Below are positions 2,234 through 34,997 of a DNA stretch of 64,000 bases, in pieces. Location: NCBI RefSeq assembly GCF_024700885.2, contig NZ_CP117016.1; one strand, 5' to 3'. The notes beneath the pieces were generated by a model. The model saw only the letters and a list, made by a program, of their open reading frames with translations, was not told where the DNA came from and made no database searches. Position 1 is the first letter of the stretch. Every line of letters starts with the position of its first letter. The stretch is from Escherichia coli (lineage in GTDB: Bacteria > Pseudomonadota > Gammaproteobacteria > Enterobacterales > Enterobacteriaceae). Position numbers and translations under genes: made by a program.

Positions 2234-5558
<3,325 letters not shown>

Positions 5559-30053: not shown

Positions 30054-30580
30054 TGAACTGCACCCCAAATGTTGGACATAATCTGACATCTGAAGGTGCA
30101 GTTTATGAAACATTCATTTGAAGTAAAACTTGCCGCTGTAAATCATTACCTGGCTGGTCATGCAGGCATCATTTCTACGGCAAAACTCTTTCAACTTTCT
30201 CACACCAGCCTCTCACACTGGATTAATCTTTTTCTTCTTCACGGTCCTCGGGCACTGGATTGCAGACACAAGCGTAGCTATTCTCCTGAAGATAAACTTT
30301 GCGTGGTTCTTTATGCTCTCGGGCATTCTGAGTCTCTACCCCGGGTAGCTGCCCGGTTTAATATTCCCAGCCACAACACGGTTAAAAACTGGATAAAAGG
30401 CTACCGCAAATCTGGTAATGAGGCCTTTATCAGGCGCAGGAAGGAGAAAAGCATGACCCGTTCTGATGATACCCATGAAAACGAGGCAAACATGACGCCG
30501 GAAGAGATGAAGAATGAGCTGCGTTATCTTCGCGCAGAAAATGCATATCTGAAAGCCATGCAGGAGCATCTCCTGGAAAA

Positions 30581-31485
<905 letters not shown>

Positions 31486-31693: not shown

Positions 31694-32344
31694 TTGGCGA
31701 TTCGTCTTCATAAACTGGCTGTTGCTTTAGGTGTCTTTATTGTTAGCGCTCCTGCCTTTTCGCATGGTCATCACTCACACGGCAAACCCTTAACAGAGGT
31801 CGAACAAAAAGCTGCTAATGGTGTTTTTGATGATGCCAATGTACAAAACCGAACGCTCAGTGACTGGGATGGAGTCTGGCAATCCGTTTATCCTTTACTG
31901 CAAAGTGGCAAACTTGACCCCGTCTTTCAGAAGAAAGCGGATGCAGATAAAACTAAAACATTTGCTGAAATTAAAGATTATTATCGCAAAGGTTATGTGA
32001 CAGATATCGAGATGATTGGCATTGAGGACGGCATTGTTGAATTCCATAGAAATAATGAAACAACATCCTGTAAATATGATTACGATGGATACAAAATACT
32101 CACCTATAAATCAGGCAAGAAAGGCGTTCGTTACTTATTCGAATGTAAAGATCCTGAAAGCAAAGCCCCTAAATATATTCAATTTAGCGATCATATAATT
32201 GCACCACGAAAATCATCTCATTTTCACATTTTTATGGGTAATGATTCACAGCAATCTTTATTAAATGAAATGGAAAACTGGCCAACGTATTATCCCTATC
32301 AGTTGAGTAGCGAAGAAGTGGTCGAGGAGATGATGTTTCATTGA
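31694..32344 (+). CDS. zinT: Periplasmic zinc/cadmium-binding protein ZinT (YodA)
   Basis: 216-aa ORF with signal peptide and His-rich HGHHSHG; TTG start after a GGAGGA ribosome-binding site. Confidence 0.92.
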
Positions 32345-32432
32345 TTTTTTTGCGCTGACTTCAATTATTTAACAGAACAGTGCCTGGTAGTAACGACAAT
32401 AATTTACCAAGACAAATAAATAAGACAAACTC

Positions 32433-32466
32433 AGACACGCTCATGCTTGAGACGTGTCTTTTTTAT
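32433..32466 (+). terminator. Rho-independent terminator after zinT
   Basis: GACACG / CGTGTC stem followed by TTTTTTATTAT. Confidence 0.7.
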
Positions 32467-33013
32467 TATGTCTGTAGAAAAAAACTGAGAAAACGGCGAA
32501 CAATAAATACACAACTCGCCAATACAGACTGGCTGCGCCAATGTCTCCAGGAGCAAGTCATCTGTCATGGTAAAGCTAACCAGAAATATAGGTTAATTTT
32601 GGTATTTAAACCTTTTTTACTTGTTAGTATGATACAAAGGCTTTCAAAAAAGCTGGGAAATTCAACAACTCTTGGAAATTATGGACTTTGTCCCGCGGCT
32701 TTAATCTGACGGCCGCGTTCCTTTTTTTGCTCAATTATTGACCCCTTCTCTATGCAACTTCAGTTCCCACCACCAACTTTGCGGCAGCTTCGTAGGATCA
32801 ATGTCTAAAAGAATAATGGTGACCGATAAGAAAACGACTGAATAACTGCAGATTTTCGCTCGAAACCTTCCTGTCAGATCCATAGCGAATCAAGTGCTGA
32901 ATGTCACAGTATCGAACAGAAAACAGTGACGATCTAACCCTTCAAGAATATTCTACGATTGTTCTGTTTAGGAAAAGCAAGGCGGGAAGTCGGGAGATAA
33001 GTCATTGATAAAG

Positions 33014-33075
33014 TGGCGGAGAGAGGGGGATTTGAACCCCCGGTAGAGTTGCCCCTACTCCGGTTTTCGAGACCG
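33014..33075 (-). other. Truncated tRNA-Ser(CGA) serU, 3' 62 nt only; prophage attachment-site remnant
   Basis: Minus strand reads CGGTCTCGAAAACCGGAGTAGGGGCAACTCTACCGGGGGTTCAAATCCCCCTCTCTCCGCCA (anticodon loop to CCA end of serU as recalled); the 5' part (D-arm and acceptor 5' strand) is absent. Confidence 0.85.
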
Positions 33076-33376
33076 ATGATACAGAGTCGAAAAATCAAAG
33101 AGTTAAAAATTTTTCTTGGAATAAATGTCTTAAAATCGTACAAGAAAAATCAATGAATTACATAACATTAAAGAAGAATATTCCAAGCCTTCTTGAGGCT
33201 ACCACCTGTTTTCAGGTGTCATTCAGACGTGATTTGCCCCAGATTGGGAAAGCACGCTTTTTTCTCAGCTTATTCCGTTTTGCCTGTGTGTTGAATAATT
33301 CCACTGCAGTTATATAAAATCGGTAACGTCTGGAAATCATTCAATACTCGCACTATCGAAAGTTCACCAGCCAACC

Positions 33377-33416
33377 GCAGCACGTTCTTGCATACGACGT
33401 GCTGCGGTTTTCTTTA
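33377..33416 (+). repeat. Palindromic hairpin element, copy B (near-identical to 1295-1335)
   Basis: GCAGCACGTTCTTGCATACGACGTGCTGC followed by GGTTTTCTTTATG; about 28 of 31 core positions match copy A. Confidence 0.5.
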
Positions 33417-33566
33417 TGATTTATGCACAATGGACAATTTGAAATTATTGATGATTGAATGGTGCATCGTTTTCTGAACCTACACTGATTTTTTGGTATA
33501 GCCTTGCCTAGCCAGTCTTACCGGATCAAACCCTTCGCTATTGCAATACTAACCAAAATCATCAAT

Positions 33567-33665: not shown

Positions 33666-34997
33666 ATGATTATCAACCAGGTACCTATAAAAATAAAAAT
33701 CTTCATCTTTTTATTTTCATGCATCTCTATTATATTTTTGTTACTGCATGAAAATAATGGAATATACATAACACAAACAACACAAATAAGTTATAGTGTT
33801 TTCATTATTGGGCTTTTTTTCATAAACCTGATGATTTTTATTTTTCTATTGCTTTACTATGTTTCTAATCAGAGACAAAGTTATCTCTTAATTCTTTCAT
33901 TCGCGTTTTTGAGCAACACGTATTATTTATTAGAAGTGGCTATTATTTCTTTATCTCCGTTAGGTAACGATTTATCTACAATCTATCAGAAATCAAATAA
34001 TATCGCAATATATTATCTATTCCGTCAGTTCAGCTTTATATCTATAATCTTTCTGGCTGTTTATTCCACCAATGTTAAAAATAAAAGTGTTTTAGAAGAT
34101 AAAAGAAACATAATAATTGTTGTTTTGTCAATATTAATTCTTTTTATTACTCCGTTTGTAGCAAAAAATCTAAGCAGTGACAATATAAAATATAGTCTTA
34201 ATATTATACAATACTCGCTGAATCGTCATTTGTCGACGTGGAATATCGTGTACACCAAAATAATATCAGTATTTTGGCTTGTATTACTTATCAGCTCATG
34301 CATCAGCATACGTAATTACTCAAAAATATGGTTGTGTATAATACTTATTAGTATAGTGTCAGTATGCAATAATCTAATTTTATTGTATTTTATTGATAAA
34401 TCCCATCCTGCATGGTACATGACAAAATTTCTTGAATTGATATCAATGATTTATATCATTTCAACACTCATGTATTATGTTTTTAGGAAATTAAATCATG
34501 CTAATCATATGGCAATTCATGATCCACTAACGAATACATACAATAGAAGATACTTTATTGACTCATTGAAGAACATATCAAAACACCATGATTTCTCAGT
34601 AATAATGTTAGATATTGACAGTTTCAAAAGCATCAATGACAAATGGGGGCATCATATGGGTGATCAAGTCATAGTAATGGTTACCAGAATAATAAAAAAA
34701 TCCATCAGGAAAGAGGATATATTAGGGCGCTTAGGCGGTGAGGAGTTCGGTATTATCATTAAAGGTAATACTCAAAAGCTCTTGCTATCAATTGCAGAGC
34801 GAATCAGAAAAAACATTGAAGAGCAATGCTCGGAAAAATTATTATCGCATGGACCTGAGAAAATAACTGTCAGTATTGGTTGCTTTACTTCAAAAGAGAA
34901 TAATCTCAGTCCATCTGAAATGTTAGTCAATGCCGACAAAGCGTTATATCAAGCCAAAAGAACCGGAAAAAACAAGGTGATAATTCACTCAAAATAA
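33666..34997 (+). CDS. Membrane-anchored diguanylate cyclase (multi-TM sensor domain plus GGDEF), DgcX-like prophage cargo
   Basis: 443-aa ORF; very AT-rich (I/L/F/N/K/Y-rich) N-terminal membrane domain; C-terminal GGDEF domain with RLGGEEFG active site and upstream RKED I-site-like motif. Confidence 0.85.
   Translation: MIINQVPIKIKIFIFLFSCISIIFLLLHENNGIYITQTTQISYSVFIIGLFFINLMIFIFLLLYYVSNQRQSYLLILSFAFLSNTYYLLEVAIISLSPLGNDLSTIYQKSNNIAIYYLFRQFSFISIIFLAVYSTNVKNKSVLEDKRNIIIVVLSILILFITPFVAKNLSSDNIKYSLNIIQYSLNRHLSTWNIVYTKIISVFWLVLLISSCISIRNYSKIWLCIILISIVSVCNNLILLYFIDKSHPAWYMTKFLELISMIYIISTLMYYVFRKLNHANHMAIHDPLTNTYNRRYFIDSLKNISKHHDFSVIMLDIDSFKSINDKWGHHMGDQVIVMVTRIIKKSIRKEDILGRLGGEEFGIIIKGNTQKLLLSIAERIRKNIEEQCSEKLLSHGPEKITVSIGCFTSKENNLSPSEMLVNADKALYQAKRTGKNKVIIHSK

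Follow-up and report, generated by a model that had tools for sequence, protein, structure and literature searches.

The DNA between zinT and the serU tRNA remnant of this E. coli chromosome is very probably an ordinary single-copy non-coding spacer, in which zinT (+ strand) and serU (- strand) converge and which belongs to a haplotype without yodB. The segment is real but ordinary, and is already explained by existing data. It was analysed within a window of 64,000 nucleotides, the whole stretch of DNA considered here. Its left anchor is zinT (31694-32344, + strand; metal-binding protein ZinT), a 216-aa ORF with 98.5% nucleotide identity to K-12 zinT and annotated as such in E. coli strain MLI114, to which the window is 100% identical across the zinT–serU stretch. 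To the right, 33014-33075 (- strand) is the reverse complement of the last 62 nt of serU, with 100% identity to K-12 serU and homology ending at 33075; this 3' remnant forms the att core at the left prophage junction (attL), and ARAGORN calls no tRNA at the zinT–serU stretch of the window. The preliminary description, made from the letters alone, had put a serU remnant about 670 bp past zinT and had given the K-12 order as zinT, yodB, serU. Both statements are accurate: the gap is 669 bp (32345-33013), compared with 1,442 bp in K-12, where yodB lies inside it. The serU piece is likewise present as described, except that the mature serU 3' end is at 33014 rather than 33013 and the remnant is 62 nt long. 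The same description had noted about 550 bp of non-coding DNA before the remnant and the absence of yodB, and we agree on both counts. No credible gene was found within the 669 bp after zinT, Rfam at a permissive E (up to 1) returned only sub-threshold chance matches inside the spacer, and a tBLASTn search of the whole 64-kb window with K-12 YodB gave no match (best E 0.27), nor was any YodB-like or cytochrome b561 (PF01292) ORF detected. The 669-bp gap is a real sequence feature and no chance pattern, being the standard sequence in 42% of complete E. coli.

To catalogue this locus within the species, 5,426 complete E. coli genomes were surveyed. The whole query (32345-33080) has a match of some kind in 5,422 of them, and the right-hand 446 bp of the spacer is found in about 5,400 genomes, K-12 among them. 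The first 222 bp past the zinT stop (32345-32566) have no megablast counterpart in K-12, homology to which breaks at the zinT TGA stop. This yodB-less 222-bp segment occurs in 2,292 genomes (42%) and the K-12-type 995-bp segment with yodB in 3,114 (57%); the two forms are nearly mutually exclusive and jointly account for 5,406 of the 5,426. From these near-exclusive counts we infer that yodB is an accessory gene, absent rather than relocated. It had been suggested that alignment might show conserved intergenic DNA at this locus with yodB located elsewhere in the lineage; comparison with K-12 and with strains whose serU is empty upholds the conserved intergenic DNA and not the relocation. The presence or absence of yodB is also used as a clone marker in ST410, in which one clone has the gene and another is without it (PMC10786849).

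K-12 thus differs from the window in having 995 bp including yodB in place of 222 bp, and in an intact serU adjoining the spacer. The haplotype-specific filler at 32467-32566, carried by the same 2,292 genomes, stands where K-12 has about 870 bp including yodB, and has no significant match to the K-12 segment. At the right edge of the haplotype difference (32567-32589) divergence decays rather than ending abruptly, with six fixed inter-haplotype differences at 32574-32589 and the next only at 32799. A simple insertion/deletion relation of the two haplotypes was considered and fails, only the zinT hairpin being recognisably common to both; with the E. albertii spacer, too, the K-12 segment has just this hairpin in common. 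Other yodB-less E. coli (PO06021, CFT073, F11 and strain 1190 among them) have the same 669-bp spacer as the window (identity 93-100% in the 222-bp part, 97-100% elsewhere) and differ only in what occupies serU: nothing, a P4-type island, PAI-serU or various prophages. The yodB-less form is followed by an intact serU and directly by mtfA in PO06021, M505, Ec1115, 50579417, WP5-S17-ESBL-10 and 2010C_5028, and it also accompanies quite different serU elements in CFT073, K-15KW01 and MRY15-117. yodB is therefore missing from the window because its lineage has the yodB-less haplotype, and not through removal by a phage. More generally, a missing yodB beside a serU prophage is not to be taken as phage damage.

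The comparison was extended to other species by scanning one genome per species with ZinT, which gave about 78 loci from other species, plus two further loci that are E. coli-like contigs filed under other names. No YodB homologue was found within 4 kb of zinT in the roughly 78 other-species loci. In E. albertii the order is zinT, a 567-bp spacer, serU and mtfA, with no yodB. The spacer of E. albertii NBRC 107761 is collinear with and homologous to that of the window: its last 135 bp are 84% identical, the block corresponding to 32567-32640 is 86% identical, and against the 222-bp segment the global alignment score is 53, compared with a shuffled null of -59 +/- 12 (z about 9). It differs in being about 100 bp shorter, the counterpart of 32620-32735, including the second terminator described below, being missing or unrecognisable. 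The homology in E. albertii, together with the lack of yodB near zinT in other species, indicates that the yodB-less organisation is common within the genus. Moreover, the K-12 zinT 3' UTR is more diverged from the window haplotype than that of E. albertii is, and the two forms cannot be related by one simple insertion or deletion; the K-12 form would be a divergent replacement. The yodB-less state is probably ancestral in Escherichia, on a comparison that outside E. coli comprised E. albertii and one cryptic clade of the genus. In the cryptic-clade representative, Escherichia sp. MOD1-EC7003 (L005 4649-5300), the zinT–serU spacer is cut to about 153 bp, of which only 8 bp and the last 145 bp are kept, and an island with an integrase abuts the very 3' end of serU, where only some 15 nt of the tRNA precede the junction.

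The nearest YodB proteins outside E. coli are 72-77% identical. The closest relative, in Citrobacter portucalensis (L093 4001-4540; 76% identity), is a prophage moron situated between a lysis cassette and HNH/terminase genes; a relative in Salmonella (65%) is chromosomal, elsewhere and in an unrelated context. A phage origin of yodB was considered and set aside: similarity to the Citrobacter copy does not extend outside the coding sequence, and among phage records the K-12 yodB segment matches only a chromosomal flank deposited with SerU-LTIIb.

The left part of the spacer begins with the zinT 3' UTR of the yodB-less haplotype (32345-32432, + strand), which, from the stop codon on, has no alignable counterpart in the K-12 haplotype. 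It is followed by the predicted zinT intrinsic terminator (32433-32465, + strand), an 11-bp bulged hairpin (32433-32459) and then U6, with a folding energy of -15.3 kcal/mol (z -3.3); none of 200 shuffled sequences folds as well. K-12 has the same hairpin at the same offset from the stop codon (a local match of 37 bp scoring 32, where the null reaches at most 27). However, the K-12 hairpin (L004 3119-3146) has no U tract, which is found only in the yodB-less haplotype. Given this lack of a U tract, zinT-yodB transcripts of K-12 probably end at the second terminator; zinT and yodB may be co-transcribed there, ending at the terminator at NC_000913.3 2043181, 283 nt past yodB. On the other side of zinT, an IS3-family element (IS1397 in MLI114) occupies 30096-31453, between msrQ and zinT and about 240 bp upstream of the zinT start.

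Within-species diversity was measured among eight yodB-less strains plus the window, and variation in sub-segments among 18 E. coli sequences. Nucleotide diversity is 0.043 for the 222-bp segment, 0.040 for zinT third codon positions and 0.017 for the shared 446 bp; within the left part it is 0.033 at 32345-32432 and 0.055 at 32467-32566, the highest of any segment. The 222-bp segment and zinT third positions are thus neutral-like in diversity. Mild constraint or recombination history could account for the lower value in the shared 446 bp, the sample being small. We also considered reading constraint on individual sub-segments from these data, and rejected this as 18 sequences are too few to separate constraint from history.

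The right part of the spacer is shared with K-12 MG1655, in which the yodB–serU region is NC_000913.3 2,042,899-2,043,467; the right-hand 446 bp of this region are 96% identical, without gaps, to 32567-33012, and hold the same + strand terminator, serU trailer and antisense-to-serU promoter as the window. The sequences of these three elements are identical, or nearly so, between the two. Published K-12 transcript maps were therefore projected onto the window by sequence identity, with the coordinate conversion checked by sequence. All transcript starts and ends given here come from the K-12 literature and would apply to the window strain if it behaves in the same way, whereas the haplotype frequencies, the independence from serU occupancy, the E. 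albertii homology, the hairpins and the non-conservation of ORFs were established in this work. A second intrinsic terminator (32694-32728, + strand) is predicted from a 7-bp GC stem (32694-32717; -11.6 kcal/mol) and the tail UUCCUUUUUUU. Like the zinT terminator, it combines a stable GC-containing hairpin with a following U tract. Our consensus promoter/terminator scan had missed both hairpins, because of a bulge and a 10-nt loop. In K-12, Term-seq (PMC7815308, supplementary file 1) detected, under two of three growth conditions, a 3' end classed as 'orphan' at NC_000913.3 2043181 (+), which corresponds to 32727 of the window within exactly the same sequence; the end of the Conway + strand transcript, deduced as U00096.2 2041205, is the same position as 2043181. 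By analogy with these K-12 RNA 3' ends, the hairpin at 32694-32717 would be a working terminator. In K-12, the + strand RNA with its 3' end at 2043181 may be no more than the yodB (or zinT-yodB) mRNA.

On the opposite strand, the K-12 transcription unit of serU has its promoter at 2041633 and its terminator at 2041144 (U00096.2), and 61 nt of it overlap the convergent + strand unit (PMC7373196, Table S1). The terminator position maps to about 32666 in the window, approximately 350 nt past the mature serU 3' end. By this correspondence, 32666-33013 (- strand) would encode a primary-transcript 3' trailer of about 350 nt, which in the window has been severed from serU by the prophage. A trailer of this length fits with the consensus scan and trailer folding, neither of which found a canonical - strand terminator adjoining serU; 163 nt of the trailer fold no better than shuffled sequence.

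A promoter antisense to serU is also known from K-12, where its TSS (U00096.2 2041439, +) is present in two independent data sets, those of Dornenburg and Thomason, as reported in PMC7373196. The corresponding site in the window (32926-32961, + strand) reads GTGACG-17-TATTCT with the TSS at G32961; the reported start of the K-12 antisense RNA, GTTCTGTTTAGGAAAAGCAA, is identical to 32961-32980, the RNA beginning GTTCTGTTTAGG. There is no E. coli variation at 32880-32951 among the 18 sequences, and the antisense-promoter block is the best conserved across Escherichia (E. albertii 84%, MOD1-EC7003 94%). The K-12 dsRNA cluster S-166 (U00096.2 2,041,159-2,041,583) ranks among the 20 most abundant of those captured by p19 and listed for small-RNA loci (PMC7373196). 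Its equivalent in the window is 32681-33075, a region in which both strands are transcribed in K-12 and the duplex is cleaved by RNase III; the cluster is RNase III-dependent, and the region was also seen by Lybecker, as described in PMC7373196. In K-12, the serU trailer and the opposing + strand promoter together account for this RNase III-cleaved double-stranded RNA. Since serU is cut short in the window, the sense partner of the antisense RNA must differ there from that of K-12. The terminators, trailer, antisense promoter and dsRNA thus characterise the spacer as a zone of convergent transcription. The curated annotation of NC_000913.3 contains zero features between yodB and serU, and this long unannotated gap can be accounted for from existing maps by a terminator, the serU trailer and the antisense promoter.

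The serU remnant was assigned to a prophage junction from the arrangement in MLI114, where an intact serU lies about 44 kb away at the other prophage end, 27 bp from a frameshifted tyrosine integrase (pseudogene), together with mtfA, asnT and the yersiniabactin island. A 79-bp repeat with 94% identity links both prophage ends. With the intact tRNA and integrase at one end and the 3' part of the tRNA at the other, as is typical of integration into a tRNA gene, the serU piece of the window is the left prophage junction.

The proximity of this prophage raises the question of whether the spacer is a deletion scar, as the preliminary description had offered, with yodB and its flanks lost through integration of the serU prophage or imprecise excision of a predecessor. 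Such an origin is very improbable, and as an account of the missing yodB we regard it as refuted. serU is indeed a busy integration site, with several different elements in the strains examined, and phages that carry chromosomal DNA from the serU flank indicate that imprecise events did happen at this locus. However, the identical arrangement is present in many strains where an intact serU is followed directly by mtfA, and a homologous yodB-less spacer exists in E. albertii; for these reasons the reading is wrong. The yodB-less spacer is not confined to occupied att sites, nor does its breakpoint fall at the att core: the haplotype difference (32345-32589) is separated from the core by about 425-450 bp of shared sequence. 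Moreover, with the exception of the zinT hairpin, the 222 bp are not a subset of the K-12 995 bp. The one real deletion found, in E. coli EC2001, is mediated by IS903B and looks quite different. In that strain (L102 776-1976) an IS903B insertion accompanies the loss of msrP, msrQ, zinT and most of yodB, and only the last 176 bp of the K-12-type segment are retained.

Two further alternatives would assign a gene to the spacer. It is hardly credible that the spacer encodes a protein, whether the 109-aa ORF at 32380-32709 or one of the ORFs of 35-50 aa. The 109-aa frame is open in seven of nine other yodB-less strains, but its GTG start lies inside the zinT 3' UTR and, as the preliminary description had pointed out, it reads through the zinT terminator (32433-32465). 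The frame is cut short by a stop codon in Ec1115, shifted in 2010C_5028, missing from the K-12 haplotype and broken by indels in E. albertii; the differences among its copies are mostly non-synonymous, with eight residue changes between the window and M505. None of four ORFs, this one included, matches Pfam, and the earlier impression that it is not a membrane protein stands. For the 35-aa ORF at 32901, the start codon is ATA in E. albertii. The 109-aa ORF is spurious, and annotation pipelines should leave it uncalled. The existence of an independent small RNA gene in 32605-32728, which both haplotypes would carry and which would have gone unannotated in K-12, is unlikely: a sigma-70 promoter would drive an RNA of about 88 nt from about 32640 to the terminator at 32694-32728. 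A promoter-like but unproven site, TTTAAA-17-TATGAT, is located at 32605-32633 (+ strand; 9 of 12 consensus matches), 60 bp upstream of the second terminator, so that promoter and terminator are in the right order and at the right spacing. The 'orphan' RNA 3' end of K-12 (PMC7815308) is real and maps to this terminator, 283 nt downstream of the yodB stop codon. Among the 18 E. coli sequences, 32605-32637 is invariant, hexamers included, and 32639-32727 has only three singleton changes. Against this, the promoter match is at chance level (8 such sites in the region, 6.9 expected), the 97-nt candidate RNA folds no better than shuffled sequence (z -0.96), Rfam gives no relevant match at E up to 1, and no TSS near 32640 appears in the supplements of Cappable-seq, SMRT-Cappable-seq or Kim 2012. 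Neither family nor fold nor conservation beyond the species marks it as a small RNA: E. albertii is without the -10 region and terminator, and 32641-32735 gives no significant alignment there. The K-12 end at 2043181 is more simply read as the end of the yodB message, a reading that follows from the absence of a U tract on the K-12 zinT hairpin and of any other terminator after yodB. The earlier suggestion of a small RNA or regulatory element here is thus unsupported by Rfam, folding or conservation as regards the small RNA, and weakly borne out as regards regulation by the K-12 terminator, serU trailer and antisense promoter.

As an ordinary spacer between convergent genes, the segment has three functional parts, each of them read with the help of K-12 transcript maps. 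The leftmost comprises the zinT 3' UTR and its own terminator (32433-32465), then about 100 bp of neutrally evolving filler. A central part consists of the second + strand terminator (32694-32728), the point at which the + strand transcription unit of K-12 ends. In an uninterrupted locus, - strand transcription of the remaining 350 bp or so would yield the long trailer of the serU precursor, and the + strand promoter (TSS 32961) would fire back into serU, such that both strands would contribute to a dsRNA cleaved by RNase III. With a prophage of about 44 kb in serU, the trailer and antisense promoter now adjoin a dead 62-nt tRNA piece, and the working serU is the copy next to the integrase gene, at the opposite prophage end. 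A more far-reaching proposal, which we consider unlikely, is that the block 32736-33013 is a cis-regulatory module, in which trailer and antisense promoter would set the level of the tRNA-Ser(CGA) precursor via RNase III, and which serU phages would either sever, as in the window, or supply in their own copy, as in ev099 and mEp332. If true, lysogeny at serU would alter tRNA expression according to the type of phage.

This serU-proximal flank (32736-33013) is also carried by some free lambdoid phages beside a serU piece. Phages ev099, mEp332 and PhiR70_1 contain 32736-33270 of the window as one block at 98-99% identity, comprising the flank of about 278 bp, the 62-nt serU piece and 195 bp of the phage left arm. 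In these phages the block sits between an AraC-family gene and a tail-fibre assembly gene, about 2 kb from int; it spans positions 3001-3535 of the ev099 locus (L098) and 2051-2585 of the mEp332 locus (L097). The window prophage, unlike all three, has int immediately next to serU and lacks a second flank copy. A 277-bp flank query matches 5,975 places in 5,404 genomes, with about 570 extra copies, and in their SNPs the phage copies agree with the yodB-less type of chromosome. The phage block appears to be either chromosomal DNA picked up at a former attL or att homology of unusual length. The phage-borne flank is a small, concrete case of phages carrying chromosomal DNA beyond the 3' end of a tRNA gene, and may be relevant to the evolution of att sites. 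In O157:H7 strain 86-24 (L101 4501-4841), the flank and serU piece lie beside the same AraC gene in a remnant prophage elsewhere in the genome, with a different right arm.

Several features of the prophage itself were also recorded. Just inside its left end, 33666-34997 (+ strand) encodes a 443-aa sensor diguanylate cyclase with 30% GC; the gene is surrounded by capsid and tail-fibre-assembly pseudogene fragments and looks like cargo. It is downstream of, and codirectional with, the antisense-to-serU promoter (32926-32961). At 33376-33471 (- strand) Rfam gives a partial hit to CssrB (chromosome-encoded Shigella sRNA B) that, at 44 bits, falls short of the gathering threshold of 76; the hit overlaps a strong + strand hairpin and T run at about 33371-33418. 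Towards the far end of the window, 63617-63875 (- strand) holds two prophage tRNA genes, called by ARAGORN as Arg(tct) and Met(cat); the second is annotated by RefSeq as tRNA-Ile in the identical strain, the usual lysidine-type ambiguity between such calls.
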